Source: a virus. From it: 55,970 nt of DNA. Of the stretch, positions 1,008 through 55,970 are shown one piece after another. The stretch spans positions 1 to 55,970 of IMG/VR virus record IMGVR_UViG_3300045988_090085; one strand, written 5' to 3'. Made by a program: the position numbers and the translations under genes. A model generated the notes under the pieces. The model was not told where the DNA came from and did no database searches. It worked only from the letters and a program-made list of their open reading frames with translations. Each line of letters starts with the position of its first letter. Positions within the stretch are counted from its first letter, which is position 1.

Positions 1008-1037
1008 CCTCATATAATAGTATGTTTTGCGCGCGAA
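1008..1037 (-). promoter_or_regulatory. Promoter-like motif copy (short-leader class)
   Basis: Minus TTCGCGCGCAAAACATACTATTATATGAGG; upstream of 863..994. Confidence 0.55.
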
Positions 1038-1310: not shown

Positions 1311-1340
1311 CCTCATAAGAGAGCGTGTTTTTTACGCGAA
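1311..1340 (-). promoter_or_regulatory. Promoter-like motif copy (long-leader class)
   Basis: Minus TTCGCGTAAAAAACACGCTCTCTTATGAGG; upstream of 1095..1277. Confidence 0.55.
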
Positions 1341-2480: not shown

Positions 2481-2510
2481 TCCCATAAAACAGGTTGATT
2501 TTATCGCGAA
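2481..2510 (-). promoter_or_regulatory. Promoter-like motif copy (long-leader class)
   Basis: Minus TTCGCGATAAAATCAACCTGTTTTATGGGA; upstream of 2085..2444. Confidence 0.5.
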
Positions 2511-2763: not shown

Positions 2764-2793
2764 CCTCATATAATAGTATGTTTCAGTCGCGAC
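2764..2793 (-). promoter_or_regulatory. Promoter-like motif copy (short-leader class); overlaps the 3' end of 2783..3007
   Basis: Minus GTCGCGACTGAAACATACTATTATATGAGG; upstream of 2556..2753. Confidence 0.5.
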
Positions 2794-3007: not shown

Positions 3008-3023
3008 TTTGATCACCTCCTTT

Positions 3024-3274: not shown

Positions 3275-3304
3275 CCTCATAAAAGAGTGTGTTTATTACG
3301 CGAG
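3275..3304 (-). promoter_or_regulatory. Promoter-like motif copy (long-leader class)
   Basis: Minus CTCGCGTAATAAACACACTCTTTTATGAGG; upstream of 3069..3239. Confidence 0.55.
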
Positions 3305-3536: not shown

Positions 3537-3566
3537 CCTCATAAAGGAGCATGTAATTTACGCGAA
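3537..3566 (-). promoter_or_regulatory. Promoter-like motif copy (long-leader class)
   Basis: Minus TTCGCGTAAATTACATGCTCCTTTATGAGG; upstream of 3323..3502. Confidence 0.55.
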
Positions 3567-3599: not shown

Positions 3600-3601
3600 T
3601 C

Positions 3602-3761: not shown

Positions 3762-3791
3762 TTTCATAAGAGAGCGTGATTTTGTCGCGAC
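3762..3791 (-). promoter_or_regulatory. Promoter-like motif copy (short-leader class) containing the 18-bp palindrome ATTTTGTCGCGACAAAAT
   Basis: Minus GTCGCGACAAAATCACGCTCTCTTATGAAA; upstream of 3602..3748. Confidence 0.55.
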
Positions 3792-4064: not shown

Positions 4065-4094
4065 CCTCATAATAGGAGATGTTCGGTACGCGAA
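4065..4094 (-). promoter_or_regulatory. Promoter-like motif copy (long-leader class)
   Basis: Minus TTCGCGTACCGAACATCTCCTATTATGAGG; upstream of 3828..4034. Confidence 0.55.
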
Positions 4095-4372: not shown

Positions 4373-4402
4373 TTTCATTAAATAGAATGTTTTATGCGCG
4401 AA
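4373..4402 (-). promoter_or_regulatory. Promoter-like motif copy (short-leader class)
   Basis: Minus TTCGCGCATAAAACATTCTATTTAATGAAA; upstream of 4136..4360. Confidence 0.5.
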
Positions 4403-4601: not shown

Positions 4602-4631
4602 TTTCATTAGAGGGTATGTTTTTGTCGCGAA
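4602..4631 (-). promoter_or_regulatory. Promoter-like motif copy (short-leader class)
   Basis: Minus TTCGCGACAAAAACATACCCTCTAATGAAA; upstream of 4418..4588. Confidence 0.5.
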
Positions 4632-4930: not shown

Positions 4931-4960
4931 CCTCATAAGAGAGCGTGATTTTGTCGCGAC
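4931..4960 (-). promoter_or_regulatory. Promoter-like motif copy (long-leader class)
   Basis: Minus GTCGCGACAAAATCACGCTCTCTTATGAGG; upstream of 4677..4898. Confidence 0.55.
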
Positions 4961-5203: not shown

Positions 5204-5233
5204 TCTCATAATACAGGATGTTTCCCACGCGAC
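5204..5233 (-). promoter_or_regulatory. Promoter-like motif copy (long-leader class)
   Basis: Minus GTCGCGTGGGAAACATCCTGTATTATGAGA; upstream of 4997..5167. Confidence 0.5.
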
Positions 5234-5589: not shown

Positions 5590-5619
5590 TCTCATAAGAG
5601 ACCGTGTTTATTACGCGAA
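5590..5619 (-). promoter_or_regulatory. Promoter-like motif copy (long-leader class)
   Basis: Minus TTCGCGTAATAAACACGGTCTCTTATGAGA; upstream of 5275..5556. Confidence 0.55.
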
Positions 5620-5870: not shown

Positions 5871-5900
5871 CTTCATAAAGGAGTATGTAATCAACGCGAA
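5871..5900 (-). promoter_or_regulatory. Promoter-like motif copy (long-leader class)
   Basis: Minus TTCGCGTTGATTACATACTCCTTTATGAAG; upstream of 5637..5834. Confidence 0.55.
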
Positions 5901-14172: not shown

Positions 14173-14655
14173 TCATAACATTTTAGTTTTACCGTCAAGA
14201 GTGTATTTATATGGGCCTACATCATAGTCAACGGTTATTTTACTGTAATGTATACTGGAACTTGAATCCCATTTGCTGACCCATACGCGTCCCTCATAGT
14301 AATAATTTGGATCATCGTTAAAGATAATCTTCTTCTTACTACCATTAAGGTACGCCATTACCGTAGAGAACATATCGCTCCATTCCTTAAACCCATTCTG
14401 GACAAGGAACTCGATCGATCCTGTACGGTTATTGTATACTGGTTTGCCTGAGACAACCTCGGATAAATCTATGACACCGTCAGCCCCCGGGATATCGACT
14501 GTGGAAGTCTTCTGCGTCGGGGGATTTATGACGGGTCTTGTCATAGGAACGAGGTGCCAGTCAATCCAAGAATTTTTTGACTCAGTCGCTGACTTAAACG
14601 TTACCGAATGGAAGTTATTGGCCGCGATCTGGTCTATCTCGTCTTTAGTAGGCAT
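14173..14655 (-). CDS. Distal tail protein (Dit-like)
   Basis: 160 aa directly after the tape measure (TAATG overlap); ..VDIPGADGVIDLS.. pattern and position. Confidence 0.55.
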   Translation of the reverse strand: MPTKDEIDQIAANNFHSVTFKSATESKNSWIDWHLVPMTRPVINPPTQKTSTVDIPGADGVIDLSEVVSGKPVYNNRTGSIEFLVQNGFKEWSDMFSTVMAYLNGSKKKIIFNDDPNYYYEGRVWVSKWDSSSSIHYSKITVDYDVGPYKYTLDGKTKML

Positions 14656-20600: not shown

Positions 20601-22586
20601 CGAGAAGAGTCCCGAAAATGTACGCATAAGTTCGTTTGAGTAGTAACCCACCTTAGCAAATGCCGCCGTGAGTTTGTTCAATGTGGTAAGAAATGTCTTT
20701 ATGGGTTTAGCACCAGTATTGAAAGTTTGTTTGAACGCAATCTTTACAGATTTAGCAATAGCGAGTATGCCGGTTAAAGTGTTCTTGATACTCTCGATAA
20801 GGAGTTGACGTCCGCTCTTTTCGGACATATTTTGAATCATCTCATTGAGCGTTGTGCCACTCGTACGAGCTTCTTCAGCTAATGCTTTATAAGCCTGAAT
20901 CTGATCATCCGTGAGACCTAGATTCTTGAGCTGTGCATTAGACAGTTCATCATAATTTATTTTCTCACCAGCAATGGTTCTGTTAACTAAATCTTGAACG
21001 ACACTGTATTCATATCCAGCGTCTGTCAGTGATTTAACTCGAGCGGAACCATCGCCGTATACACCCTGAATAACGGCGTTAACAACTGACTGATAAGATG
21101 CTATCTTCTGAGCCGCCGCTGCAGCCTCGGTTCCTGTACCGTCGAGCTTACCTGCAAAACCGTCAAGTGTATTGAGAAGACGATCATCAGTAAGCCATCC
21201 ACGCTGAAGTGTTGCTTCAAACGAGCCATCGATCTCTATCCACTTATCAATCGCAAGACCACTCTTACGAGCATCATCTACGAGTTTCTGACGGAATGTA
21301 TCAACTGAAAGTCCCGCATCCTGAAGAGTAGAACTGAACTTACTCCAGTTCGATGTCATGGCATCATTAACGATAGCATTTCGAGCATCACTGGCATCGT
21401 TGATTACTCCACTAAGCATATCCGATATATCGGTGAAGAATCCCTTAGCCTCTTCGAAATCGCCAACAATTAGCTGCCACGTCATGGTCCAACCAGAACC
21501 TACTGCTTCAGTAAGAGTGTCTATGAGCTGAGTAAATGTCTTAACCTTGGTTGCGGCATTCTCCGCTGTGGTTGACATATTAAGAAGCTGATAAGCCTGA
21601 TCTTCGCTTATCTTGCCTGATTTAGCAAGTTCCGCCGCCATTTTATGATATTGCTCGGTTACATCAGAAGAGGCGAGTGCGTTTTTACGCATTGCTTCCA
21701 CTGTTTGTAAACTTGTACCAGTAACCTTTGCAAGATATTCGTTAACGCCAGAAGTAGTAAACTTAGAAAGGGTCTCTGTAAGAATTTCAGAAGTTATCCA
21801 GCCTTCCTTAAGAGACTCTCTAAACGAGCCAGCTTTCTCGATTATCTCGTCGACTGCTACGCCGTATGTTTTAGCAGTATCTTTTAAAGCATTTTGAAAT
21901 ACTTCACCACCCATGCCGGCATTAACGACCGAGTTCCAGTCCTGAAGCTTCAGTGCGCCTGCCGCAAGGGCCTGAGAAAGCTGATACATTGCTGTGGAAG
22001 CCTGCTGAGATGTCGAACCCGATACGGCTGCCAGGTTAGCGATACCCTGAATAGCCCGTGTTGAAGTTTCAAGATCGATACCAGCTGCGGTAAACGTACC
22101 GATGTTACGAGTCATCTCGGTGAAGTTATAAATAGTCAAGTCAGCATATTTGTTCAGCTCATTTAAGGACTTGTTAACGTCATCCAGTGTGGATCCCTTA
22201 GACGAAGTATTAGCCAAAATTGTCTGAATAGCGCCCATCTGGGTTTCGTACTCTTCGAAGCCTGCTGTAATAGGAGCTACAGTAAACATCTCAGCATACT
22301 TTTTGCCAGTATCGACAATTTTATTAGCAATACGGTCCATCACATTGTCAACGGTCCTGTATAGTAAATTAAAAGACTCTCGAACAGTTGCAACAGAATT
22401 CTCAAGCGGCTTAAGTGTTATTGATTCAATTGCACTCGTTAGAACGCTAATCGATTTTGCACTATCTTTGAAATCTAAATCTGACTTAAACTGATTAAGT
22501 GATTGCTGTGATTTCTTTATGTTCTTTTCGAACTTAGAATTATCAAACGAAAGTTCGACGACTTTGCGGTCGACTTCTGTACTCAT
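14655..22586 (-). CDS. Tail tape measure protein (2643 aa)
   Basis: Giant ORF between the chaperone genes and Dit; coiled-coil ends, ~585-aa hydrophobic core, internal tandem repeats. Confidence 0.9.
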   Translation of the reverse strand: MSTEVDRKVVELSFDNSKFEKNIKKSQQSLNQFKSDLDFKDSAKSISVLTSAIESITLKPLENSVATVRESFNLLYRTVDNVMDRIANKIVDTGKKYAEMFTVAPITAGFEEYETQMGAIQTILANTSSKGSTLDDVNKSLNELNKYADLTIYNFTEMTRNIGTFTAAGIDLETSTRAIQGIANLAAVSGSTSQQASTAMYQLSQALAAGALKLQDWNSVVNAGMGGEVFQNALKDTAKTYGVAVDEIIEKAGSFRESLKEGWITSEILTETLSKFTTSGVNEYLAKVTGTSLQTVEAMRKNALASSDVTEQYHKMAAELAKSGKISEDQAYQLLNMSTTAENAATKVKTFTQLIDTLTEAVGSGWTMTWQLIVGDFEEAKGFFTDISDMLSGVINDASDARNAIVNDAMTSNWSKFSSTLQDAGLSVDTFRQKLVDDARKSGLAIDKWIEIDGSFEATLQRGWLTDDRLLNTLDGFAGKLDGTGTEAAAAAQKIASYQSVVNAVIQGVYGDGSARVKSLTDAGYEYSVVQDLVNRTIAGEKINYDELSNAQLKNLGLTDDQIQAYKALAEEARTSGTTLNEMIQNMSEKSGRQLLIESIKNTLTGILAIAKSVKIAFKQTFNTGAKPIKTFLTTLNKLTAAFAKVGYYSNELMRTFSGLFSLFGIVGDIAGGVLKFALQELGKVVDVDAGNILGFTASIGDNIVAFRKWMKEHNVIQSSLEKIRDAIANAWTYLGEFKDKIMETEVAQTVFAKIQAGAKNVGKFMNEHFGNAITLIKNFIQYVKSLGHIDISDLPKLFASFREMVVDELFKMEVDFTDFGTYLKTNLIGSLQSSLAKVRGPLDSFLSEASMIVDAIKKTFSQLNWGVVFAAANAVIVVKTVERISTALSSAVELFDPVKGILKSIKGTIKAFTGVLKQQAFKTQAEATLEMAAAVGVLALSLTLLASIDPDKIGKALGLLGAMVVLMGSIGVLSVALTKVSGEAKVINNTTLTIIALGIAVNLLATACDKLAKTFQSLDMMGTTDVITGLGVMLGGIAAVIYYSGTVSKELNKAAGFMISIAASCVVLAGALKLLSSVKFVNPAVILELMSFIGVFALMAKSLTGKEIASFGVQMLAFSGSLLLIAAAFNNLPSATQVGKGMTIVVTFAGIVTAMIAVSKLAGRHTNKIGVSILAFSASLGLLAVGIRMLGSIKTSEASKGIGVIWEFGFVAIALIAVSKLAGEASHKAGVLLLAFSGAVVALTAAVAAFSLMNPEGLKQGIQAVQSIGLVMTALIAVSKLAENAFKSLIVITTLLVGMTVGLGILSSSLFDQDAMIKAATALGIIMAALAASFAAIGLVSKAMANTKGVMGTMTVALIEMAGVMAAISTLIIAISAIEKKFDLKTSLDTIQGISSMLLALSAAMVILGIAGMFNYGTLLAGVGGLLTLIAGLAGVVTLMGMLVEAIGDDGALIDTGIDALKKLFVGLGELFAESVVATISGLPEIGNILSEFMDNLQGFLDGCASLSVDRIEAIDSLITTLSTLFSGKFKIDKLEDNKKMMVKLSSSMALLTPVLNDFAEQCKSIDTSGLNKAKAGTEALVEMAGFIVNDLWAVQTLTDSPKDGNSDLTKFGTGLKSYGEALVEFSKQGTGIDSAGMEAGVNATDSLAEAAGSIPNTGGFLAAIVGDNTWNDFRDGLSQYARTLVVFSIACKHIDATGLENGVDATKKLAAVNDEIPETGGKLGEWFGDKSWSNFSAGLSSYATALQSFSIKSKSINATQMQNGVDGTAVLIDLYETLPEDDSWWDKLWGNTKVDWSKLGNGLNAYAESLMTFASTLSDGNVNFSAVNSALTSISKLINLASSIRDIGLASDNVNWTILQGNLQGLSTSFGYISGVTDAELTNLASTETAAETLTKIIQNVADSILNDDKSAGIKNFKTLLNSITFAASGFYTTMSSLDSGTLSGHISMVDSLVAMIKNAGSISDSDIKKYADIVSTFQQLTTVSLIGGSDSAKTGKRKLKASLKQRRKEVNEYTKTTRKITRDAKKETEMATAEVNASNAKAAAETEKESGNFLDTLVNTGKDKLNGIKDTATNFFSALTTGDTTSIASMFGVGDLSGLITGDLSVAQSDITKYYKDLGVEYSSTLQTAKSEYDAIIEDYKDGRITQSEYDAKYTTLLKKYTQDQVGLIGYAQDKMSDYVQKNMDNLNKDFENTIKTIQSKIDKLKGNVNKDMADLMTFTTKNDLYEQGLEPLETRLQELNDQKDAAIARYGEESNQVIQLERNIKSLEKEITAYKEANESAKGDDTIVDARFTDKIRKGTTAINEYNDKLKELQKRSGSDALMSLFEGMDVEKGTATANYLLSETDEQLAALAHNYEKYQNAGNELAKTLYGDQLQSATEAYVQDVLDTVKDLPDSAKTIGVNIAAGLANGFSDETEASLSLIDMSGAKITDSLKELFGIHSPSTVMRDEVGRYLARGLIEGFTDELNKFANGIGNYVSTDLGILDVNTQTSIDTMNNIVSKLNAAIQNGINTSPVITPVLDLSQVQLGMGQLNTMFGAGGLAVPNTLINSTANINANDAALLGAVNQMNTDICGKLDTINPVNELMQLRNDVNVQFTTINDRLDNMQVVMDTGALVGQLTSGIDQSLGDRATMKRRGG
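17045..17756 (-). repeat. Four tandem ~62-aa repeats inside the tape measure (F..GL..Y...L..F ... GV ... IP.TGG ... W)
   Basis: Read from the translation: FGTGLKSYGEALVEF / FRDGLSQYARTLVVF / FSAGLSSYATALQSF / LGNGLNAYAESLMTF. Confidence 0.8.
18738..19124 (-). repeat. Three tandem 180-nt (60-aa) hydrophobic repeats inside the tape measure (..ALIAVSKLAG..)
   Basis: Plus-strand GCAAGTTT(G/A/C)GA(A/T)ACTGC(T/A)AT recurs at 18740, 18920 and 19100, exactly 180 nt apart. Confidence 0.8.
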
Positions 22587-33490: not shown

Positions 33491-33569
33491 GCCCTAGTAG
33501 GAGATTGCACGTACTCGACACCTATTGAAAGGAGAAAGTTAAGTATCGCCTGCAACCTCTTACTAGGGC
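33491..33569 (-). promoter_or_regulatory. Long imperfect hairpin (19-bp outer stem + 6-bp inner stem) abutting the RBS of the first late gene
   Basis: Minus GCCCUAGUAAGAGGUUGCA..UGCAAUCUCCUACUAGGGC (1 mismatch, 1 G-U), inner CGAUAC/GUGUCG; 3' arm ends 1 nt before UUAAGGAGG. Confidence 0.6.
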
Positions 33570-33590
33570 TTAAAAGTGATTTTAAGCAAA

Positions 33591-33658
33591 CCTCCCCCGG
33601 GGAATTCTCGAGGAGGCGCGCGATAAGAGAGGGGGTGTATTTTGAAAGACCCCTCCCC
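33591..33658. promoter_or_regulatory. GC-rich palindrome cluster (candidate cos/pac or regulatory site)
   Basis: CCTCC-CCCCGGGG-AATT-CTCGAG-GAGG, GCGCGC, then GAGGGGGT-N12-ACCCCTCC, inside otherwise AT-rich DNA. Confidence 0.4.
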
Positions 33659-33949
33659 ATGTTCATATGTTTGCAATGTCCTTTGCTTTCTTCTTTCATT
33701 TCTGTTCGTTGAACAATAACAAAAGCTTAAACAATTTGTTAGACAAAGCAAACACATTAAACATGAGAAACGTTTTGCTGTTTACTGACCAAACAACAAA
33801 GCGCTTTAAAGTTCTTATCCTTGTAAATAGAATTCAAAGATTATCGATCAGCTTCTTTAATCATTCATGTATCGAATCCAATTGTGTGGGTAGGCATAGA
33901 TTCCATAAACTATATCTGCAAGTCCAGTCAATTAATCTAAGAATTATAT

Positions 33950-34201
33950 TCAAGTATTATTTGGAGCGTTACGACTAACGACTTTGAAGATGTCTAAAGG
34001 ATCTTCAATAACAACTTGATTGCAAGCTCTTTGAATTTCCTTATTGTATTCTTCAGGAGTCATTGTGTCATCTGTGAACGCAACTCTTGCGAGACGTTCA
34101 CACGTCTTATAACCATGAGCGATATCATAGTTCCACCACTGATCAAACTTATCAAATGGTGAATAAGGATTATCTTTCGTGGTTAATGCGAATTCTTTCA
34201 T
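33950..34201 (-). CDS. Hypothetical protein (83 aa)
   Basis: ORF track frame, ATG 8 nt after AGGAG; last gene of the nuclease/RNAP operon. Confidence 0.7.
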   Translation of the reverse strand: MKEFALTTKDNPYSPFDKFDQWWNYDIAHGYKTCERLARVAFTDDTMTPEEYNKEIQRACNQVVIEDPLDIFKVVSRNAPNNT

Positions 34202-34206
34202 TGCGT

Positions 34207-36975
34207 TCACTCCTTTCCTTTAACATAAGCAGAAACAGTTGATGAAGATACCCCAAGTGCTTCTGCAATTTCAGCAACTGTATAACCAGAGGTATTCATT
34301 GCTTTAAGTTTATTGATCTTTGCATCAGAGAGAGTTGTTGCAGCTCTTGGTGTAGCGCGCTTTCTTAAATCCTCAGAATCAACATACTTAAATATTTTAC
34401 CGAGTTTGCTGTCCGAAATTGCGCCTGCTTGAATCGCTTCCCATTCACGATCTGAGATCTTGATGTTGGTACGCTTAGCTCCCACCTGGATACGGGCCTT
34501 AGTAAGCTGTCTCTGACTTTCTTTCTTGATTTCACCCTTTGTCATATAGGGATTCGATGCCTTCTTAGCATCCACTGCCATGCGGGCTATGATCTGAGCT
34601 TGCCTTTCACGAGGAGCATTACGGGCTGCAGTCTTATACTGAGCCTCAAGGTTAGCTACCTCAGATGCATACTTCTTATTTGCTTCCGGACTATAGGTAA
34701 GTCGAGGCGTGTACACAGAAGCCTTGCGTGCTTCGTTTGCCAATGTCTTAAGATCATTAGCATAGTTTGCATACATATCTTCGACAACAGTTCCTGAAGA
34801 TAAAGTACGAGCATCGCGTGTTTCAGCCATCTTGGTGGAAACCTGCTGACGATGGACGGTCTCACCCTTTTTATTCACGTAAGTAGCAGGGTCTGTTGCC
34901 TGTATTTCAGCACCTTCCGGAAGTGAAGGATCATACCAAGGCTTGTCTTTCTGATTGATATGAACAGAGCCTTTTCGTTTATCTACACGTTTGTCACTCT
35001 TTGCTCGAGATATAAGTGTAGACGCACCTTCATGATATTTACCATCATCTTCATCAATGTGTCCCTGATACTTAGCTTTAAGTGCTGCTATTCTATTATC
35101 AGCTTCGGACTGCTTATAGTTCAGTCCATGCTTCTCGGCATCGATTACAACCATCGAATGTCGAACTGCACAAGCAAGTTCGTCATCGTTAGCGCCCTTC
35201 AATGTCATGTCAGTGATGAGGTTTGAAACAACACCCATTTCCTTCTGGGTCTGACCTTTGGTCATTCGTTTCATTCCTTCGATTGCAGGATATGCCATCT
35301 TAGGATCGAAGCCCTTGAGTCCAGGAAGTTCCTCTCTTGATGTTATCTTAACACCTGTATTCTTTCCATTACCAGCTGTAGGGATAACCATTACAGTATC
35401 ACCATCGAAGTCCGCTCCCGAAAGTCGATCAGCTACATCTTTTGAGATACCAACAGCATCGAGTGCATTGCCGTATGTATTTTTGCCTTGCTTATTCTTA
35501 TTATTGACTGTGAGTATAGGTATCTCAAACGTACCACCATGTGGAAATCGTATAAGCGCTACCTTTTCGCCGTCCTGATAAGTAGGCGCATAAACCTCAT
35601 CGTTCTTTATATCGGTTAGGGGTAAGATTACTTTGTAGTTCTGCCTAGGAAGTGCTGCTGCGTCAAGATGAACTGCAGTTGAATCACAGTCCGAGGCAAA
35701 GCTCGCGAGGAGCTCTCTTTTAACAACAGGATTATCCAGAGAAAGTATTTCATCAAGATCTTCCTGTCGATTCTTTATAGACAAATCAAGCTGCTTTGAA
35801 ATAAGCTGCTTATTCTGTTTGGATAAGAACTGTGCAGGAAGATGATCAGACCATTCTTCCCAATCGCCTTCCTCTCGGGTCTTATTAATAAGACTCTGCT
35901 GCTCTTTTCCATTGTCATCAGTGTACCAAGACTGACCACCACGCTCCTTGAGGAGAGCGCCGAACGGATTTTCGGGATCATCCTTGATTTTCTTGAGAAC
36001 GTCCATCTTAGGCACGTCTTTGGTTTTGTTTGTGTTGAAACGGACATCGACTCCATCAGGAAGATCGTCAGCGTAGACTGCCATTCCCTTCAGGTATCTA
36101 TTTCCGTCAACCAGAATTCGAACCTGCGCATAATGTGAATTGCCGAGGTCCAAATCTGCTACACCTCTACGGAGCTCGATTACGCCATCCTTGTTGACGC
36201 CACCGTCTTCGGCGTAGTTGATCATCAAACGCTTAGAATCCATAGATTTAGGATAAGCAAATGCCTTTTTGAACGAATCACCCTGATCATAGGAAATATA
36301 GTTCTCAACCGAATGAATTTCGTCGAAATTGAATATTTCCTTGTGTTCTGTACCAGGAGGACAGAGCGCTTTAACAGTAGTGAACTTACCAGGATTAGTA
36401 ACCTGCTCCATTCGACCATTATAAGTCGGATAACCTTCGAGTTCAAGAATATAGAGCGCAGTTTTCATCATTTCTGGCGAAACACCTAGCTGCTCAGCAA
36501 CACCTGAACCGACATCCAGTTTACCATCTTCGGCGACTCTCTTTTTGAGGAAGTCAGCTGTCTTCTGGGCCTGGTTCATGCGAGCTTCAGATGCTTCATT
36601 CAAGAGCGATCGTACTGTTGACTCAGCAATACCGCCCATACGTCTTCCGATCTCAGTAGCTCCATAACCCTTTTCAGAAAGTCTTCTTGCAGTCTCAACC
36701 TGAATAGCTCTTTCTTCGTTCTTGGCGAGAGATCGCTGAGTTCTGAACTGCGAAGTTGTAAGACCCATAGATTTAGCAACCTCGGTATCTGTCATACCAG
36801 TAGCCTTTAGTTCCTTTATACGACTGAGAAAATCACCTGCGTGCTGATAGGGATTCTCGCCAGATCCGTAAGGCCACCGACCAGATCGTCTTGGCATTCC
36901 GTAATGCTCGATAAGCCAAGGCTCTCTGTCAAGTTCCTCTTCAAAGTAGGCAAGATCTTCCATGCCCCAGATCAT
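34207..36975 (-). CDS. Putative single-subunit double-psi beta-barrel RNA polymerase (YonO / RdRP-like) with N- and C-terminal HTH modules
   Basis: aa 472-533 VALIRFPHGGTFEIPILTV..LSGADFDGDTVMVIP parallels beta-prime ..NRAPTLH..NADFDGD.. and the RdRP DbDGD loop (DFDGD = 35398..35412); HTH-like aa ~55-125 and ~893-922. Confidence 0.6.
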   Translation of the reverse strand: MIWGMEDLAYFEEELDREPWLIEHYGMPRRSGRWPYGSGENPYQHAGDFLSRIKELKATGMTDTEVAKSMGLTTSQFRTQRSLAKNEERAIQVETARRLSEKGYGATEIGRRMGGIAESTVRSLLNEASEARMNQAQKTADFLKKRVAEDGKLDVGSGVAEQLGVSPEMMKTALYILELEGYPTYNGRMEQVTNPGKFTTVKALCPPGTEHKEIFNFDEIHSVENYISYDQGDSFKKAFAYPKSMDSKRLMINYAEDGGVNKDGVIELRRGVADLDLGNSHYAQVRILVDGNRYLKGMAVYADDLPDGVDVRFNTNKTKDVPKMDVLKKIKDDPENPFGALLKERGGQSWYTDDNGKEQQSLINKTREEGDWEEWSDHLPAQFLSKQNKQLISKQLDLSIKNRQEDLDEILSLDNPVVKRELLASFASDCDSTAVHLDAAALPRQNYKVILPLTDIKNDEVYAPTYQDGEKVALIRFPHGGTFEIPILTVNNKNKQGKNTYGNALDAVGISKDVADRLSGADFDGDTVMVIPTAGNGKNTGVKITSREELPGLKGFDPKMAYPAIEGMKRMTKGQTQKEMGVVSNLITDMTLKGANDDELACAVRHSMVVIDAEKHGLNYKQSEADNRIAALKAKYQGHIDEDDGKYHEGASTLISRAKSDKRVDKRKGSVHINQKDKPWYDPSLPEGAEIQATDPATYVNKKGETVHRQQVSTKMAETRDARTLSSGTVVEDMYANYANDLKTLANEARKASVYTPRLTYSPEANKKYASEVANLEAQYKTAARNAPRERQAQIIARMAVDAKKASNPYMTKGEIKKESQRQLTKARIQVGAKRTNIKISDREWEAIQAGAISDSKLGKIFKYVDSEDLRKRATPRAATTLSDAKINKLKAMNTSGYTVAEIAEALGVSSSTVSAYVKGKE

Positions 36976-37529
36976 ATTACTCCTCCTTCCTGTTTAGTTA
37001 TGATATCAGAGAATCGTATTGCCTTATCCATAATATATTTTATGCGCTCTGGCTCAGGATTATGAATCACAACCTGATTGTTCTGATATATGCGTAATTC
37101 CATCTCAAGATCAGCCGGATTCTTCTTATACTCCAGACAGAACAAAGCTGCATATATTTCAAGCTGCTCCATGTGTGCTGGAACTACCCCAGTCTTGAGA
37201 TCATGTATTCTCAGCATATTTTTTCGGAAACTTATGGCATCAGCCGTTCCAAAACAATAAGGAGAATAATATAATATTCTCTCAGGTGTCATCTTGTAGC
37301 CAATTGCGTCATTGACATAAAGATTGAGAGTCGCGTTGGTTTTCTGCAGCTTTACGCCAAGCTTAATACACTGTGCTGCAAGAGCGTGAAGTTCAGTTCC
37401 CTGAGCAGCTGCAAGGAAATTATTGCGAGTTTCCATGAGCTTGTCTTCGTCATAGTTTACCCAAGAATATTTACTCGCCGAGAGAAAGGCATGTTTACCT
37501 TCAAGCTTGGAATGATCGTTCCATATCAT
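36972..37529 (-). CDS. PD-(D/E)XK nuclease (RecB/Cas4-like core, no Cys cluster)
   Basis: GTADAISF..LRIHDLKTG..HMEQLEIYAALF = D..DxK..QxxxY; ATG after AAGGAGG. Confidence 0.6.
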   Translation of the reverse strand: MIWNDHSKLEGKHAFLSASKYSWVNYDEDKLMETRNNFLAAAQGTELHALAAQCIKLGVKLQKTNATLNLYVNDAIGYKMTPERILYYSPYCFGTADAISFRKNMLRIHDLKTGVVPAHMEQLEIYAALFCLEYKKNPADLEMELRIYQNNQVVIHNPEPERIKYIMDKAIRFSDIITKQEGGVI

Positions 37530-37812
37530 TGAGTACGGCCTCCTTATTCTCAGGGTAAATAAATGATGCATAGGACATGTTGTTCATCGTATCAACATAA
37601 TAATCCTGATTGGGTTGATGAGACGCTTCGGCATCTCTCTTACATTCAAGAGCTGCCCAGTGTCCTTGATGTAAAACAAGTAAATCTGGGATACCCTGAA
37701 TGTGATTTGGATCAGTCTTTAAAACCAGGCATCCTTCGAACCGATGCTTGATCTCTTTGACTAAACCAGATTGGAAGTCTCGTTCCAATTTGTTAGGGGA
37801 TCGTCCTTTCAT
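37501..37812 (-). CDS. VRR-NUC domain nuclease
   Basis: ERDFQSGLVKEI..GIPDLLVL..ALECKR pattern; ATG after AAAGGAG. Confidence 0.65.
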   Translation of the reverse strand: MKGRSPNKLERDFQSGLVKEIKHRFEGCLVLKTDPNHIQGIPDLLVLHQGHWAALECKRDAEASHQPNQDYYVDTMNNMSYASFIYPENKEAVLNDMERSFQA

Positions 37813-37832
37813 GAAAATTCTCCTTTCAAATA

Positions 37833-37947
37833 TTTTGAGCAGGACCCAGCAGGTTGAAAGAGGAAGATAAGATGGAGGTCCAAACCATGGGTCGTCAGGG
37901 ATTGGAGGATATATCAACATATGGAGGTCGCCAAGTCCTGCTCAAAA
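37833..37947 (-). promoter_or_regulatory. Leader element: perfect 13-bp inverted repeat (TTTTGAGCAGGAC/GTCCTGCTCAAAA) enclosing 89 nt with three CCTCCA motifs
   Basis: Read directly; 3' arm ends 4 nt before TTGAAAGGAG, the RBS of 37501..37812. Confidence 0.55.
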
Positions 37948-37982
37948 GATAAGAGAGAAAGTAGTTATTGTCTCTTTCTCTC
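37943..37982 (-). terminator. Leader hairpin (9 bp GAGAGAAAG/CTTTCTCTC) + TTATCTTTT: attenuator-like
   Basis: Starts inside the 3' end of promoter-like copy 37980..38009. Confidence 0.45.
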
Positions 37983-38009
37983 CATAAAAGACCATGTTTC
38001 GCGCGCGGA
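37980..38009 (-). promoter_or_regulatory. Promoter-like motif copy heading the nuclease/RNAP operon
   Basis: Minus TCCGCGCGCGAAACATGGTCTTTTATGGAG. Confidence 0.45.
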
Positions 38010-38023
38010 CATTTATCAATCTT

Positions 38024-38446
38024 CTACCTGACGATTGGAGGCTCTGGATAGGTCAAATCTTCGACCCTAACATCCAGCGCGTTTGCTATTTTGAACATAT
38101 TACCCAGAGAAGGGCAACATGTTGCATGCATATAATTTGATATTGTTGGTTGAGATATACCCGTCTTAACCGAGAGGTCTGTCTGACTCATGCGTTTACG
38201 TGCCATGTGTCGGTTGAGTCTTAGAGCAAAACTCCTGAGATATTCATCCTCGGTATAACCTTCTTCAATGTCAACAGCAAGTACGTCAAGTCTGAAGTTC
38301 CTTCCATTCTCAGTATAGACCATTCGCTTGCCATGCATTGTGAATACAATCTCCCCATACCTAGCGTCGATGACGTCTGTAATCTCAATACCCTGCTGTA
38401 GATACTTGTCCATGTCCATCCAGAATACTTCCATTGTATAACCCAT
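38024..38446 (-). CDS. XRE-family HTH transcriptional regulator (C-terminal HTH)
   Basis: MSQTDLSVKTGISQPTISNYMHA..NMFKIANALDVRVEDL; ATG after AAGGAAGG. Confidence 0.7.
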   Translation of the reverse strand: MGYTMEVFWMDMDKYLQQGIEITDVIDARYGEIVFTMHGKRMVYTENGRNFRLDVLAVDIEEGYTEDEYLRSFALRLNRHMARKRMSQTDLSVKTGISQPTISNYMHATCCPSLGNMFKIANALDVRVEDLTYPEPPIVR

Positions 38447-38549
38447 AAAATAGCCTTCCTTTCTTGATTTGTATGAATTTTTGATAAATTGCGGTAAAAT
38501 CACAAAAATTTTAAAAATCTTTAATTAGCAACCGAAAAAATGGCATTTT

Positions 38550-38565
38550 TATTAATTTATTTATA
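38550..38565. promoter_or_regulatory. Operator-like palindrome O1 (imperfect)
   Basis: TATTAAT-TT-ATTTATA. Confidence 0.5.
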
Positions 38566-38568
38566 GCC

Positions 38569-38584
38569 TATTAATATATTAATA
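38569..38584. promoter_or_regulatory. Operator-like palindrome O2
   Basis: TATTAAT-AT-ATTAATA, perfect 7-bp arms. Confidence 0.55.
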
Positions 38585-38640
38585 AAAATGGAAATTCACG
38601 TAGGAGAAATAAAACAATATTTTTTATTTTTATCAAAAAT

Positions 38641-38656
38641 TATTAATAAATTAATA
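38641..38656. promoter_or_regulatory. Operator-like palindrome O3
   Basis: TATTAAT-AA-ATTAATA, perfect 7-bp arms. Confidence 0.55.
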
Positions 38657-38659
38657 GCC

Positions 38660-38675
38660 TATTAATAAATTAATA
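38660..38675. promoter_or_regulatory. Operator-like palindrome O4
   Basis: TATTAAT-AA-ATTAATA; 19 bp centre-to-centre from O3. Confidence 0.55.
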
Positions 38676-38704
38676 GAATATTGTTCAATCTTCGCCCAAC
38701 AATC

Positions 38705-39191: not shown

Positions 39192-39221
39192 CTTCATAAA
39201 GGAGTATGTATTAATCGCGTG
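39192..39221 (-). promoter_or_regulatory. Promoter-like motif copy
   Basis: Minus CACGCGATTAATACATACTCCTTTATGAAG; upstream of 38992..39165. Confidence 0.5.
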
Positions 39222-40182: not shown

Positions 40183-40211
40183 ACCGATTTTCTCCTTTCA
40201 AAATTCAAATA

Positions 40212-40247
40212 AGAAAAGCTAAGAGAGCCTGTTATAGCTCTCTTTGC
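40212..40247 (-). terminator. Family-A hairpin
   Basis: Plus GAGAGCCTGTTATAGCTCTC; the stop codon of 40232..40603 lies in the loop. Confidence 0.55.
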
Positions 40248-40603
40248 TTTAAAGATATAAATAATTTAGAGTTGTTAATAAATGGTATATAACCCACTAT
40301 ATCACCATACTCATCTATTTTAAACTTGAAAACCATCGATTTTTGATTAATGGCATCGTCTATTATCGGTTGTATTGCATTTTGTATATATTTAACATAT
40401 GCCGGATTAACGTCTTCTAGATACTCCCCGAACGAAAATGGTTCGCCGGTTTTTCTCCATTCCTTATTAACACCGTCAATTGCTTCGTTAAAAATTTTAG
40501 CAACCGCATTATGATGCCCCATAAACCAATTAGTCATGGGTTTCCGTAAAATTTTTGGTATGTTGTTATAATGATAAAATACCTTGAATAACGATTCTTT
40601 CAT
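40232..40603 (-). CDS. Hypothetical protein (123 aa)
   Basis: ORF track; AAAGGAGG RBS. Confidence 0.7.
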   Translation of the reverse strand: MKESLFKVFYHYNNIPKILRKPMTNWFMGHHNAVAKIFNEAIDGVNKEWRKTGEPFSFGEYLEDVNPAYVKYIQNAIQPIIDDAINQKSMVFKFKIDEYGDIVGYIPFINNSKLFISLKQREL

Positions 40604-40617: not shown

Positions 40618-40647
40618 TCTCATAAGAGGCAGTGTTTTCTTCGCGGA
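40618..40647 (-). promoter_or_regulatory. Promoter-like motif copy (short-leader class)
   Basis: Minus TCCGCGAAGAAAACACTGCCTCTTATGAGA; upstream of 40232..40603. Confidence 0.5.
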
Positions 40648-40965
40648 CTACTCAAACGTCCCAACATATTTGCCAACTACCCCTGCTGAGTCCTTTGAGT
40701 CGGTAGCTTTGAAGTATGCACCTTCTTTACGAGGATACATAAATTCGAACATGAGATAGTTCATAGCATCGAGAAGATATTCGGTATTACCTGTCTCCTC
40801 ATATTTCTCAATACATCTCTGACAAGTAGGTATGGCCTTTACTCCATTAGGCTGAGTAAAGTTATCCGCAGCAGAGCCGTATTTGTAGAATGAGGTCTCA
40901 ACTCGGTTTTTTCTTAGTTGATCTGCGCGTAGAGAGTATTCTTTGTTCAGATCAAACTTCGTCAT
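40648..40965 (-). CDS. Hypothetical protein (105 aa)
   Basis: ORF track frame trimmed to ATG after AAGGAGGAG. Confidence 0.65.
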   Translation of the reverse strand: MTKFDLNKEYSLRADQLRKNRVETSFYKYGSAADNFTQPNGVKAIPTCQRCIEKYEETGNTEYLLDAMNYLMFEFMYPRKEGAYFKATDSKDSAGVVGKYVGTFE

Positions 40966-41428
40966 CAGACTTCTCCTCCTTAATCCATTTCTCGAAGACA
41001 TTGTAGTAAGAGCCGGTATTGCCCATCGTCTTCTTAGTAATTGCCATAGCCAGACCCTTCTCAGGATCAAACTTGTCCCCAGGCTGGCACTTCACAACTG
41101 TCTTAGTGCCGTCACTCCAGAATACGATAGTAGCAGGGTCGTTAAAGATGACATTCTTGATATAAATAGGTGATCTCGATACAACATCACCATCAAAGTC
41201 TGCACCAAGAGCCCCAATGCCATAAAGGGAATTAAGAAACCTCTTACATTCGAGTACATTGCTCTTACCCAAAGCTCGTGATGTTGTGATAACATCATTC
41301 ATAATATAACGACGTATATCTTCGGGTATAATCTGAATATTATCAGTATCCAGTGTATATGTCTTGCCCGGCTTACACTTCTGAATCAGGTCGTACTTTG
41401 TGATCGGAATCATGTGATGAATTATCAT
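40952..41428 (-). CDS. Hypothetical protein (158 aa); contains an isolated GADFDGD heptapeptide
   Basis: ORF track frame trimmed to ATG after GGAGG; C-terminal ..IVFWSDGTKTVVKC..FDPEKGLAMAITKK is a recurrent phage motif (recalled). Confidence 0.65.
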   Translation of the reverse strand: MIIHHMIPITKYDLIQKCKPGKTYTLDTDNIQIIPEDIRRYIMNDVITTSRALGKSNVLECKRFLNSLYGIGALGADFDGDVVSRSPIYIKNVIFNDPATIVFWSDGTKTVVKCQPGDKFDPEKGLAMAITKKTMGNTGSYYNVFEKWIKEEKSDDEV

Positions 41429-41494
41429 AATAAAAACCTCCAATTTTTTGTGTAATTTTATAAATATATGCCTAAAAATCTCTTAGTTGATTAC

Positions 41495-43923: not shown

Positions 43924-43937
43924 AATATTTCTCCTTT

Positions 43938-43978
43938 CCGAAAAGCTAAGAGAGCTTGTTACAGCTCTCCTGCTTTCG
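43938..43978 (-). terminator. Family-A hairpin (GAGAGCT/AGCTCTC)
   Basis: Immediately after stop of 43979..44167. Confidence 0.55.
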
Positions 43979-44197: not shown

Positions 44198-44227
44198 CCT
44201 CATAAAGGAGTATGTAATTTACGCGAT
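44198..44227 (-). promoter_or_regulatory. Promoter-like motif copy (long-leader class)
   Basis: Minus ATCGCGTAAATTACATACTCCTTTATGAGG; leader nearly identical to that of 3828..4034. Confidence 0.55.
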
Positions 44228-45791: not shown

Positions 45792-45863
45792 AAAAGACCT
45801 TGGGAATCGAACCCAAGAACTCTCGATCAACTCGAACGTGTTACCATAGTTACACCAGTCTTC
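45792..45863 (-). tRNA. tRNA-like gene, best read as tRNA-Gln(UUG) with a non-canonical anticodon loop
   Basis: Minus GAAGACT-GG-TGTA-ACTATGGT-AACA-C-GTTCG-AGTTGAT-CGAGA-GTTC-TTGGG-TTCGATT-CCCAA-GGTCTTT-T; canonical T arm and GG D-loop; G at positions 8 and 33. Confidence 0.6.
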
Positions 45864-47117
45864 TCATAATACACCATGCATTTTTCGCGAATTATTGTTG
45901 AAGGACTCGTAGAATCGTCCTTCATTGAATTTACCCTTAGCCTTCAAAGCTCTGGTTATTGCCCTGTCGATTGGACTTCTCGATACAAGATGATAATACC
46001 ACAGATTCATATAAGGCGTATTGAGGCGATCAATTCGTCCCTGTGCTTGGTTCATTATTCGCCAACTATAATTCTGAGAGTAGAATATTATAGTATCGGT
46101 AGTGATACAATTCCAACCCTCGGCACCTGCAGCATAATTGACCAAATAAACCCATTTACTTGATGTAGGGACGGGTTCGTGCTTATGCCCATTCCACTCA
46201 GCAATTTCTATGTCATCGCCATAATCAATAGACTTGAGTATATCCAACTCGAAATCATAATTGTAGAAGATGATGGCAGTGGGATGCTTCTCAATCAATT
46301 CAAGTAGAGCTACCACGCGACTCTCATCACTAAAAGTAATCTGTCGAAGAACACTACAGAATTGTGCAGCATTTTCTATAGGCTCTCCTTCCAAATTTTG
46401 CCGTGTCTTAATGACTTGCGTTATCAACTCGCCATCATATCTAACAGCAATTTCTTCGTGGTGAGAGGTTGTCTTCCGCTTGAAATCCATATCCACAAGT
46501 AATTCATCTCGATGCTGGATAAGCAATTCGACATTTATATATTGCAGCACTTGAGGGAATGTGGTTCTCGGATTATAGACAATGTGATAATACTCGAACT
46601 CGCTTTTATTTCGGTAGAACCCATTGGCAATGAATACCGCCATGTAGTCCTCCCATTTGTCGCCAGGAGTAGCGGATAACAGTACCCATTCGTTATTCCT
46701 AGCAATCTTTATAAAGGTTTTTGCCCATTTTCCGTATCCAACGACACGCTGTTCGTCAAATATGAAGAAGGCATCTTTAACATTGACATATTTTTCTATA
46801 TTATTCCAACTGTCAACAATTACTTGATTATCGTATTCATTAGCATCTGGATGTGGAGACAGCAAGAATGGTGCCATATCGACCGACCATTCTGCCGTAT
46901 CTCTCTTCCTAGCAGTTGTAATAATATATAAGTCTTTTGGGCGGGTCATCATAGAAAACTTCTTAGAAGTGTCATACAAATCACCACCCATTCGACTGTA
47001 ATAGTATGCCAACGATGTCCGGCTTTTACCAGAGCCAACTCCGCCACAGAGAATGCAACCATTATGCATTTTTCTTATAGCATCGAGTTGATAATCATAC
47101 ATTGGTACACTACTCAT
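45864..47117 (-). CDS. SF2 (SNF2/DEAD-like) helicase
   Basis: GGVGSGKS (Walker A), FIFDEQ (DExx box), ..QAQGRIDR.. (motif VI). Confidence 0.75.
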   Translation of the reverse strand: MSSVPMYDYQLDAIRKMHNGCILCGGVGSGKSRTSLAYYYSRMGGDLYDTSKKFSMMTRPKDLYIITTARKRDTAEWSVDMAPFLLSPHPDANEYDNQVIVDSWNNIEKYVNVKDAFFIFDEQRVVGYGKWAKTFIKIARNNEWVLLSATPGDKWEDYMAVFIANGFYRNKSEFEYYHIVYNPRTTFPQVLQYINVELLIQHRDELLVDMDFKRKTTSHHEEIAVRYDGELITQVIKTRQNLEGEPIENAAQFCSVLRQITFSDESRVVALLELIEKHPTAIIFYNYDFELDILKSIDYGDDIEIAEWNGHKHEPVPTSSKWVYLVNYAAGAEGWNCITTDTIIFYSQNYSWRIMNQAQGRIDRLNTPYMNLWYYHLVSRSPIDRAITRALKAKGKFNEGRFYESFNNNSRKMHGVL

Positions 47118-55034: not shown

Positions 55035-55056
55035 TGTATCATCTCCTTATTTTGAT

Positions 55057-55095
55057 CAGAAAAGCTAAGAGAGCCTGTTACAGCTCTCTCGCTTG
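55057..55095 (-). terminator. Family-A hairpin + T tail
   Basis: Plus CAGAAAAGCTAAGAGAGCCTGTTACAGCTCTC, 6 nt after stop of 55102..55434. Confidence 0.6.
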
Positions 55096-55101
55096 ACATC
55101 T

Positions 55102-55472: not shown

Positions 55473-55502
55473 TCTCATAAGAGAGTGTGTTTTTATCGCG
55501 AA
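55473..55502 (-). promoter_or_regulatory. Promoter-like motif copy (long-leader class)
   Basis: Minus TTCGCGATAAAAACACACTCTCTTATGAGA; upstream of 55102..55434. Confidence 0.55.
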
Positions 55503-55970
55503 TTACAGAACATGCCTAAAGTCTGTTCTTGGCGGTATTTCAAAATCGACCGTCATCGCAAGTCGATTATCTGCTGTGAGCGTGGACCCAAATATTGGAT
55601 CGATGTATCCGCGGTCTATGTGCCAGCCAAGTTCGTGACCCAAGGCAGTTTCTTCAAGTCCTACTTCGTAATAGAACTCATTGAGAGATATATAATTATC
55701 ATCTCTCATCTGCCGATTTAGGTCATTGCAGGCTTTTTTGATATCCTCCATTGTAGAGTAAAAGTATCTACCTGAGTAGCGCTCATAGCAAAGAAGTTTG
55801 CCATCTGCATTAGCAATAGCCACAGGAGCAGGTGTCGTAGATGCATCAACTGCTTTTTTTGCTACCTTATCCTGTATTTTTTGCTTAACCTCAGGAAGTT
55901 TCTCCTCCGGGACCATTTCTTTAATCTGCTCCTCAACAGATTTCTTATAGTCTCTAAATGCCTGATCTGA
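55503..55970 (-). CDS. C-terminal part of the wrap-around membrane protein gene (see 1..497)
   Basis: ORF 55503..55916 stays open to the window end; 55852..55970 duplicates 1..119. Confidence 0.7.
   Translation of the reverse strand, partial: SDQAFRDYKKSVEEQIKEMVPEEKLPEVKQKIQDKVAKKAVDASTTPAPVAIANADGKLLCYERYSGRYFYSTMEDIKKACNDLNRQMRDDNYISLNEFYYEVGLEETALGHELGWHIDRGYIDPIFGSTLTADNRLAMTVDFEIPPRTDFRHVL
55852..55970. repeat. Terminal direct repeat identical to 1..119
   Basis: Read directly. Confidence 0.95.

Follow-up and report, generated by a model that had tools for sequence, protein, structure and literature searches.

The two-barrel (double-psi beta-barrel, DPBB) fold is common to subunits beta and beta' of cellular RNA polymerase (RNAP), the RNA-dependent RNA polymerases (RdRPs) that eukaryotes use in RNA interference, and the phage proteins YonO, P23-45 gp64 and crAss gp66. 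YonO of the Bacillus prophage SPbeta transcribes late phage genes as a processive, DNA-dependent RNAP, and how it recognizes promoters is an open question (PMC5467207). Thermus phages encode single-chain two-barrel RNAPs of two kinds, the non-virion P23-45 gp64 (P74-26 gp62) and the virion enzyme gp96, which is fused to the tape-measure protein; gp64 and gp96 have been proposed to use promoter motifs of their own (PMC10770324). The proteins of "phage 1706" were listed as one of five YonO-like families (Ruprich-Robert and Thuriaux 2010, PMC2919709), and a 2021 preprint (bioRxiv 10.1101/842583) described the same family in actinophages and in Lactococcus and Faecalibacterium phages, with an HHpred match to RdRP (P=95.7%), a DxDGD loop and helix-turn-helix (HTH) domains at both termini. 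Here we analyze a 922-aa open reading frame (ORF) at 34207..36975, minus strand, of IMG/VR record IMGVR_UViG_3300045988_090085; the whole stretch, 55,970 nucleotides long, is called the window below. Predicted structure and conserved motifs indicate that the ORF very probably encodes a single-chain two-barrel RNA polymerase of the cellular type. The protein is a member of a known, predicted and widespread family that is experimentally uncharacterized. The analysis adds a candidate promoter that is conserved among phages and a relative fused to a portal protein; with these, promoter recognition by single-chain two-barrel RNAPs becomes testable.

Fold, catalytic residues and flanking domains

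A core-only AlphaFold2 (AF2) model (aa 236-660; predicted local distance difference test score, pLDDT, 77.6) was decisive for the predicted two-barrel polymerase fold. The top 50 Foldseek matches of this model are two-barrel polymerases exclusively, headed by QDE-1 (E 7.5e-9 at probability 1.00, with about 500 columns aligned and a query-normalized TM score of 0.43-0.44), RDR2 (E 7.5e-7) and Thermus phage P74-26 gp62 (E 3.5e-6), with AR9 beta' (E 4.6e-3) next and Pol IV, crAss gp66 and cellular RNAPs thereafter. The full-length model, built from an 82-sequence alignment (pLDDT 81.9, predicted TM score 0.71), matched plant RDR2 best in the PDB (E 1.7e-4), followed by the largest subunits of multisubunit RNAPs, all with non-significant E values; its top match in BFVD was a phage "RdRP" (E 2.8e-7).

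The closest solved structures differ from the protein in several respects. QDE-1 and RDR2 are the best core matches (E 7.5e-9 to 7e-6, about 450-510 aligned columns), but they are eukaryotic, RNA- or single-stranded DNA (ssDNA)-templated and only 12-15% identical, with a TM score of about 0.43 on the query, and no HTH modules were evident in the comparisons made. P74-26 gp62 shares 12% identity, has a crystallized chain of about 590 aa and shows no flanking HTHs evident in these comparisons; moreover, the Thermus phage has two polymerases, whereas one was found here. The crAss-like phi14:2 gp66, described as a two-barrel enzyme with a DFDxD-type loop, is a virion-packaged chain of 2,166 aa, and its structural match is far weaker (E 0.055).

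Sequence searches gave a full-length match to phrog_4291 (annotated "RNA-dependent RNA polymerase"; residues 22-921 align with profile positions 12-908 of 909 at E=0 and 1219 bits). The Pfam family RdRP (PF05183) scored 16.0 bits in the full-length query (residues 512-621) and 17.5 bits in the core alone. When 20 core sequences were scanned singly it was matched by all of them, always below threshold (best member E 5.4e-5), and it was the sole family common to the 20; above the Pfam threshold, the query carries HTH domains alone. Searches of PDB sequences with phmmer and with hmmsearch of the family profile returned no polymerase, only HTH proteins and a non-significant match to the AR9 beta' loop (E 0.6). 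In an hhalign comparison of the family profile with beta', the best stretch fell on residues 445-468 of beta', its NADFDGD loop, at a non-significant probability of 2.6%. Two family profiles, A1 and A2, reached 2.0% and 0.08% against YonO, which as a single sequence makes for a weak test.

The catalytic motif is real and more than a chance occurrence. VALIRFPHGGTFEIPILTV occupies residues 472-490 and LSGADFDGDTVMVIP residues 518-532 of the 922-aa protein. An alignment of 82 non-redundant homologues, 39-85% identical to the query and falling into three clades (gut Firmicutes phages, the Lactococcus P078 group and actinophages), revealed that R476, P478, H479 and S519-G-A-D-F-D-G-D526 are invariant in 82/82. 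Eight residues universal to two-barrel polymerases have been defined; those of the beta'-like barrel correspond to Rpb1 R446, P448 and D479/481/483, and the beta-like barrel contributes one acidic and two basic residues (Rpb2 D837, K979, K987; QDE-1 D709, R738, K743) (PMC2919709). Candidates for all eight (D263, R286, K296, R476, P478, D522, D524 and D526) are invariant in the 82 homologues, as are some 100 other positions of the core. From R to D the spacing comes to 46 aa, compared to 43 in YonO, 45 in QDE-1 and 35 in beta', and is thus close to YonO and QDE-1; motif order and spacing match the two-barrel fold. In the first barrel, the block R286...H-Y-L-K296-G...G-V-D-V-x-F-N resembles E. 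coli beta K...RHGNKG...PVDIVLNP, its VDIVLNP block included, and R286...K296-G297, read as a motif, resembles R266...K271-G of YonO. The polymerase and its catalytic parts lie as follows.

34207..36975, minus strand: single-chain two-barrel RNA polymerase homologue, 922 aa (phrog_4291 E=0, AF2 model, Foldseek)
35872..36228, minus strand: putative first beta-barrel, a beta-subunit-like DPBB, aa 250-368 (invariant D263, R286, K296-G297 and FNTNK317 block; strand pattern of the model)
35380..35640, minus strand: putative second beta-barrel, a beta'-like DPBB, aa 446-532 (R476-x-P478-H479 and Mg loop, invariant columns)
35398..35412, minus strand: D522-F-D-G-D526, predicted catalytic metal-binding loop (translation; invariant in 82/82)

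Translated in all six frames, the window contains no more than three instances of the pattern D-x-D-G-D. Another in-frame GADFDGD (GALGADFDGDVVSRS) is found at about 41,185-41,205, in a 163-aa ORF (40952-41443, minus strand) that had no PHROG or PDB match and that resembles the polymerase around the loop weakly in a single BLASTP comparison (E 0.017). This copy could be a chance occurrence, a fragmentary paralogue or a metal-binding loop.

The core is flanked by predicted DNA-binding modules. At the C-terminus, HTH_23 (39.5 vs 24.6 bits) and Sigma70_r4_2 (29.9 vs 25.7 bits) exceed their curated cut-offs. A profile of the N-terminal 220 residues detected HTH_23 in 16 of 18 members, Sigma70_r4_2 in 13 and the winged-helix family HTH_24 in nine, and its PDB matches were transposase (IS5376 HTH, E 8.4e-4) and ECF-sigma HTH domains. 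In the query itself the second N-terminal HTH falls slightly below the HTH_23 cut-off (24.0 vs 24.6 bits), and the first (residues 62-77) had no significant profile match of its own, predicted helices being its sole basis. Ahead of these modules stands a peptide in which H24, G26, S31, G32 and R33 are invariant in the 82 sequences, although residues 1-42 have pLDDT below 50; it could be a docking or packaging signal.

36850..36912, minus strand: conserved N-terminal peptide HYGxPRxSGRYPWGSGE, aa 22-42 (nearly invariant across phyla, predicted disordered)
36745..36840, minus strand: first N-terminal HTH-like module, aa 46-77 (model helices 46-58, 63-69, 74-101)
36598..36684, minus strand: second N-terminal HTH, aa ~98-126, homeodomain-like or sigma-70 region-4-like (HTH_23 in 16/18, best E 3.3e-7)
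36364..36522, minus strand: winged-helix-like module, aa 152-204 (model strands 152-154, 184-190 and 198-204, helices 159-163 and 167-179; HTH_24 in 9/18)
34213..34332, minus strand: C-terminal HTH, aa 882-921, sigma-70 region-4-like or homeodomain-like (HTH_23 E 4.5e-10, Sigma70_r4_2 4.4e-7, HTH_7 9.3e-7, all above cut-offs)

These results uphold much of the original prediction, a model's reading of the sequence that had proposed a non-canonical, YonO-like phage RNA polymerase with built-in DNA-binding modules and had called for structural comparison with YonO, phi14:2 gp66 and QDE-1. The predicted structure bears out the two-barrel fold, with QDE-1 and gp66 among the core matches, and HTH modules are present at both ends, supported by Pfam at the C-terminus and by the family profile at the second N-terminal HTH; the HTH-like strings that it had singled out lie at residues 62-77, 105-121 and 898-918. 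The DFDGD codons are where it had placed them (35398..35412, residues 522-526, minus strand). Its ORF coordinates were right, the strand, which it had left out, being minus; on the plus strand the frame of this interval is broken by many stop codons. Both strings of its catalytic segment are present, but the spacer is 27 residues rather than 30 and the segment ends at residue 532, not 533. The affiliation with YonO and the claim of novelty fared less well. YonO is likewise a single chain, with R-x-P-H followed by D-x-D-G-D 43-46 aa on and R...K-G in the first barrel, but beyond these short motifs specific kinship is undetectable by sequence (hhalign probability at most 2%), and no alignment that was run ties the HTH regions of the phage family to YonO. 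Since homology to YonO is undetectable, we assign the protein to the two-barrel superfamily and to phrog_4291 rather than to the YonO family proper. The supposition that no enzyme of this architecture was known is contradicted by phrog_4291, by the listing in PMC2919709, by the DxDGD loop and HTHs of the preprint and by RdRP labels in GenBank.

The family is large. Protein searches returned more than 8,000 scored relatives each. There are 251 isolate-phage records, and in 249 phage records the identity is 38-50% over at least 97% of the length; the isolate relatives nearest to the query are less than 50% identical. At 50% identity there are 1,515 clusters, nearly all of them 890-1,060 aa long and having their core at about 220-660, and 755 clusters match the core at E<=1e-30; at least 513 polymerase loci were found in IMG/VR. 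The query protein is a gut-metagenome member, identical to a family sequence (P0001) that occurs on 14 contigs. Named members include the proteins of Lactococcus phages 1706, P078 and CHPC971, Faecalibacterium phage Oengus (AUV56548.1) and "HTH DNA-binding" proteins of Arthrobacter, Gordonia and Streptomyces phages; the orthologues in the four relatives compared below are Giantsbane gp93, Kenosha gp89, Scarif_00088 and P078 gp77. Several GenBank phages label the family RdRP and the majority "HTH DNA-binding domain protein"; databases mostly call it "HTH DNA-binding protein" or "hypothetical". The query differs in no categorical way from phrog_4291 and phage 1706-type proteins, with which it shares full-length homology, domain order and the synteny nuclease, polymerase, small ORF, genome end. 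No biochemical or transcriptomic study of any family member was found in the literature.

A 29-nt promoter-like motif

A repeat search of the coding strand recovered two multi-copy cassettes, one a terminator-like hairpin with a T-run and the other a 29-nt motif whose consensus in the window is TCGCGtAAAAAACAyrCTCTyTTATGAGg. There are about 20 good copies on the coding strand versus one weak match on the other, and the CGCG, ACA and TTATGAG blocks keep a fixed spacing. Each copy stands 0-40 nt before a ribosome-binding site (RBS) and start codon, often just after a hairpin and T-run. The copies are followed by the small genes beyond the lysis cassette, by some of the replication genes and by the operon of the nucleases and the polymerase. 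Where the RBS directly adjoins the motif, as in several copies, a transcription start could only fall within it.

37980..38008, minus strand: variant copy of the motif, immediately before the endonuclease-exonuclease-polymerase operon
55473..55501, minus strand: promoter-like motif copy
45862..45890, minus strand: promoter-like motif copy
44198..44226, minus strand: promoter-like motif copy
40618..40646, minus strand: promoter-like motif copy, RBS abutting its 3' end
39192..39220, minus strand: promoter-like motif copy
5871..5899, minus strand: promoter-like motif copy
5590..5618, minus strand: promoter-like motif copy, after a terminator-like hairpin and T-run
5204..5232, minus strand: promoter-like motif copy
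4931..4959, minus strand: promoter-like motif copy
4602..4630, minus strand: promoter-like motif copy
4373..4401, minus strand: promoter-like motif copy
4065..4093, minus strand: promoter-like motif copy
3762..3790, minus strand: promoter-like motif copy
3537..3565, minus strand: promoter-like motif copy
3275..3303, minus strand: promoter-like motif copy
2764..2792, minus strand: promoter-like motif copy
2481..2509, minus strand: promoter-like motif copy
1311..1339, minus strand: promoter-like motif copy
1008..1036, minus strand: promoter-like motif copy

The hairpin with its T-run (minus strand, GGAGAGCTGTAACAGGCTCTCTTAGCTTTT) is present in at least 10 copies, most of them immediately before a promoter-like motif. 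Hairpin and motif form one terminator-promoter cassette per small gene.

804-850, 1045-1091, 2028-2074, 3018-3064 and 3295-3341, minus strand: terminator-like hairpin and T-run
3555-3601, 5228-5274, 40204-40250, 43931-43977 and 55050-55096, minus strand: terminator-like hairpin and T-run

The motif recurs in other phages that encode the enzyme. Position weight matrices (PWMs) were carried from one genome to another, and sites, counted as coding strand/reverse strand, were compared with the maxima of shuffled sequences; the sites that the window-only PWM found in the three actinophages all exceeded every such maximum.

Window-only PWM on Scarif (Streptomyces): 12/0, best 29.8 bits, shuffle maximum 12.9
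Window-only PWM on Giantsbane (Arthrobacter): 9/0, best 22.9 bits, shuffle maximum 10.8
Window-only PWM on Kenosha (Gordonia): 8/1, best 26.5 bits, shuffle maximum 10.9
Scarif PWM and its 3' half on Lactococcus P078: 6 and 10 sites; 10/0, best 30.0 bits, shuffle maximum 13.4
Scarif PWM on this window: 8/0, best 23.4 bits, shuffle maximum 15.0

The 29-nt PWM of the window found no site in P078, which is devoid of the TCGC half. The promoter variants are thus TCGCG in gut phages, TCGCA in actinophages and a form lacking that half in the Lactococcus group. Aligned in register, the motif reads TCGCAagaaTTACAyGsCCTATAATGAGAcccc in Scarif and TTTTACATACCCTATAATGArAGG in P078. In 1.08 Mb of IMG/VR sequence, comprising 80 loci with a gene for the enzyme, the PWM of the window gave 139 matches on the coding strand, one on the reverse strand and one in shuffled sequence; 59 of the loci measure 8 kb or more, and 55 of these carry one forward match or more. 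A strong copy is located just upstream of the nuclease-polymerase operon in most of the 80 loci, and in Giantsbane at record position 52728. Altogether the motif is common to phages of five host groups and two phyla, with phage genome GC contents from 0.34 to 0.59.

Judged by its sequence, the motif of this phage is a poor sigma-A promoter. Its -10-like hexamer, TCTTAT or TTTTAT here and in gut relatives, is without the A at -11, nothing resembling a -35 element lies 17 bp upstream of the hexamer in this phage, and the invariant positions TCGC, ACA and GAG are outside the sigma-A elements. A scan for the sigma-70 consensus around the polymerase gene found no excess (17 sites vs 16.7 in shuffles). 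The occurrence of one motif in two phyla, combined with its poor match to sigma-A, argues against host sigma-A as the reader, and its sharing by five host groups points to a reader encoded by the phage. The polymerase with its HTH modules is the only conserved candidate identified, and the motif, given its co-occurrence with the enzyme, probably marks the enzyme's own promoter. In Giantsbane the copies coincide with a published "32-bp repeat" that was read as a recombination boundary sequence with no tie to the polymerase, and no literature naming the motif as a promoter was found.

Two other roles for the motif were considered. That it drives tRNA genes was rejected, since ARAGORN called no tRNAs, whether in the window or in four relatives, and the Rfam match had E 0.96. 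An N4-type hairpin promoter was set aside, because the hairpin CTCTC-TTAT-GAGAG is not conserved in the actinophage or P078 versions. A tRNA-like stretch of about 70 nt (45792-45864, minus strand) with a perfect T-arm (CTTGGGTTCGATTCCCAAG) and then a T-run stands directly after the motif copy at 45862-45890. Its Rfam match to tRNA-Sec (16.3 bits, E 0.96) is not significant, and the stretch may be a degenerate tRNA or a small RNA.

The polymerase operon and its genome

The polymerase gene overlaps the start or stop codons of its neighbors at both ends. As had been predicted, it shares an operon with two nucleases, a phrog_3953 exonuclease and a phrog_93 endonuclease, both upstream.

37501..37920, minus strand: VRR-Nuc-type endonuclease gene, first of the conserved block (phrog_93 E 1.3e-15; annotated VRR-Nuc in Giantsbane and Kenosha)
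36972..37571, minus strand: Cas4/PD-(D/E)XK-type exonuclease gene (phrog_3953 E 1.2e-77; DUF2800; stop overlaps the polymerase start, ATGA)
33950..34210, minus strand: 86-aa ORF whose start codon overlaps the stop of the polymerase gene (phrog_4303 E 7.5e-25)
33522..33949, minus strand: non-coding gap of 428 bp containing GC-rich inverted repeats (GGGGAGGGGTC…CCCCCTC…CCCCGGGGGAGG), between the polymerase block and the packaging/structural genes

This four-gene block (VRR-Nuc, Cas4 exonuclease, polymerase, small ORF) terminates the genomes of Lactococcus P078, Streptomyces Scarif, Arthrobacter Giantsbane and Gordonia Kenosha; the exonuclease holds the same position in these relatives, and the small ORF follows the polymerase gene in 4/4. 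The gap at 33522..33949 corresponds to the physical genome ends of the relatives, the gene being at the right end of the actinophage genomes, and is likely to be the cos/pac region and possibly a late promoter site. Many IMG/VR contigs (L010-L089) end 1.1-1.5 kb past the polymerase core match, right after the small ORF, which is consistent with a defined genome terminus beside the polymerase gene across the family. The expectation that the genome holds no sigma factor or other RNAP subunit was confirmed among about 70 further ORFs scanned, none of which encodes a sigma factor, a second RNAP or another RNAP subunit.

The first and last 119 nt of the window (1-119 and 55852-55970) are identical, so the window represents the assembly, circular or else terminally redundant, of a genome of about 55,851 bp. 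The source is a siphovirus whose circular assembly measures about 55.85 kb; megablast against isolated phages returned nothing closely related in nucleotide sequence. All family-matched ORFs and nearly all long ORFs are on the minus strand. The phage encodes its own primase-polymerase, and its structural operon spans about 27 kb. The tape-measure protein (14655-22586, minus strand), very long at 2,643 aa, implies an unusually long tail; when checked for a fused polymerase such as that of P23-45, it showed no detectable polymerase domain. Just upstream of the gene for an XRE-type HTH regulator (38024..38503), three AT-rich repeat copies (TTATTAATAAATTAATAGCC) at 38549-38678 look like an operator region.

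How the polymerase may be used

The explanation that we favor, and consider probable though well short of certain, is that a single-chain two-barrel polymerase reads the ~29-bp promoter with its own HTH modules. The core (aa ~250-640) is predicted to consist of a beta-like barrel (D263, R286, K296) and a beta'-like barrel (R476-x-P478, D522-F-D-G-D526), with HTH and winged-helix modules before it and a sigma-region-4-like HTH ending the protein. The fused modules would recognize TCGCr-N5-wACAyr-N-CyCT-nTwATGAGr, about 20 copies of which stand on the coding strand ahead of the small genes past the lysis cassette, the replication genes and the operon for nucleases and polymerase, and transcription would start inside or just after the motif. 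The first enzyme would come from the virion or through weak host transcription of the operon. T7-type RNAP offers a functional analogy only: it too is one polypeptide with a long, conserved, multi-copy promoter, in which conservation would here likewise extend up to the start site. T7 RNAP has an unrelated right-hand fold, and its gene is transcribed from host promoters.

Several observations weigh against this explanation. The closest solved folds, QDE-1 and RDR2, are RNA-dependent polymerases; QDE-1 is also DNA-dependent. Pfam RdRP remains below its gathering cut-off (best stretch 17.5 vs 23.8 bits), and hhalign against single sequences of YonO and of E. coli beta and beta' was not significant, single-sequence templates being low-powered. 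D263, R286 and K296 are candidate residues, equated with their counterparts by a reading of motifs, and the literature on the family gives no measured activity for any member. The link between motif and enzyme is correlative, since every genome scanned encodes both. No copy of the motif was found before the structural operon or within the structural block. The motif contains a perfect TATAAT, usable by host RNAP, in four isolated relatives (three actinophages and P078), which makes weak host reading plausible. Finally, the polymerase operon is itself preceded by the motif, so that a seed of enzyme or some host recognition is needed.

Some of these facts would be accommodated by a division of labor of the YonO type, a serious rival that we nonetheless regard as unlikely. 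Host RNAP with sigma-A would then read the motif for early and middle genes, including the polymerase, and the phage enzyme would transcribe the structural and lysis operon only, from a promoter in the gap at 33522..33949 or by read-through across the genome junction. A motif copy before the polymerase operon is simplest if read by the host, the TATAAT of the three actinophages and P078 suits sigma-A, the structural block is without a copy, and the polymerase gene immediately precedes the packaging and structural genes, just as yonO is upstream of the late and packaging genes in SPbeta. However, the hexamer here and in gut relatives departs from sigma-A at -11 with no -35 element, the invariant TCGC, ACA and GAG are outside sigma-A elements and are conserved across phyla whose promoters otherwise differ, and no distinct late promoter was found.

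The need for enzyme that exists beforehand could also be satisfied by delivery in the virion, as with N4, crAss gp66 and P23-45 gp96. This alternative, which we likewise regard as unlikely, is a variant of the favored explanation that sets its timing: the polymerase, packaged perhaps via its N-terminal peptide, would enter the cell together with the injected DNA and start at the motif independently of host RNAP. The motif precedes early/middle-type genes and the polymerase operon, which would require an enzyme already present. Further support comes from P0399 (L009 1866-7235, Logan SRR12949875 contig), a contiguous 1,789-aa ORF that fuses a portal domain (residues 1-389, PF04860 E 2.9e-29) to a polymerase (residues 1050-1788) and that takes the place of the portal gene in a head module, where a 533-aa gene lies to one side of it and the genes for protease and capsid to the other. 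P0399 is without the terminal HTH parts of the family; profile positions 1-112 are missing, including the HYGxPRxSGRYPWGSGE peptide, which elsewhere is nearly invariant yet predicted disordered. The arrangement suggests that in one lineage at least the polymerase can form part of the virion, and it is paralleled by the tape-measure-fused RNAP of P23-45. A second long variant (P0420, 1,809 aa) has another N-terminal part (phrog_8314). Some homologues are labeled "structural protein" by one source, but these labels are automatic, the portal fusion comes from one contig only, and the gene itself is in the replication/nuclease module, not among the structural genes.

Less likely still is an RNA- or ssDNA-templated polymerase of the QDE-1/RDR kind, which would work with the adjacent nucleases in replication, recombination or counter-defense, perhaps synthesizing RNA on resected ssDNA, or double-stranded RNA, rather than acting as a transcriptase directed by promoters. 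Such a role would agree with QDE-1 and RDR2 as the best structural matches, with Pfam RdRP as the one family that every member matches and with the strict synteny of the four-gene block across phyla, and a 2010 review left RNA-mediated regulation possible (PMC2919709). It fits poorly with the HTH modules at both ends, predicted to bind double-stranded DNA sequence-specifically, which would suit promoter recognition, with the phage's own primase-polymerase, and with a multi-copy promoter-like motif that co-occurs with the enzyme; YonO, once RdRP-like by name, proved to be DNA-dependent (PMC5467207). That the protein is a DNA-binding regulator with a degenerate, inactive core, as the GenBank name "helix-turn-helix DNA-binding domain protein" of most records and the Pfam domains above threshold might imply, is very unlikely, because conservation of eight candidate catalytic residues and about 100 core positions over 39-85% identity, and of the core in 755 clusters, does not fit an inactive core.

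The larger picture is possible, though somewhat less than probable: a self-sufficient system in which one two-barrel polypeptide with fused sigma-4-like HTHs would read a ~29-bp promoter that remains recognizable from phages of Streptomyces, Arthrobacter, Gordonia and Lactococcus to those of gut Firmicutes, with the first enzyme perhaps virion-borne, as the portal fusion suggests. If true, it would constitute a T7-like orthogonal polymerase-promoter pair of a different fold, active across bacterial phyla, and would answer how YonO-like enzymes find promoters. If the pairing of enzyme and motif holds, the "boundary repeats" of cluster AU actinophages would be reinterpreted as promoters, and the family would represent a compact, sigma-independent transcription system portable between Gram-positive phyla, from Lactococcus to Streptomyces.

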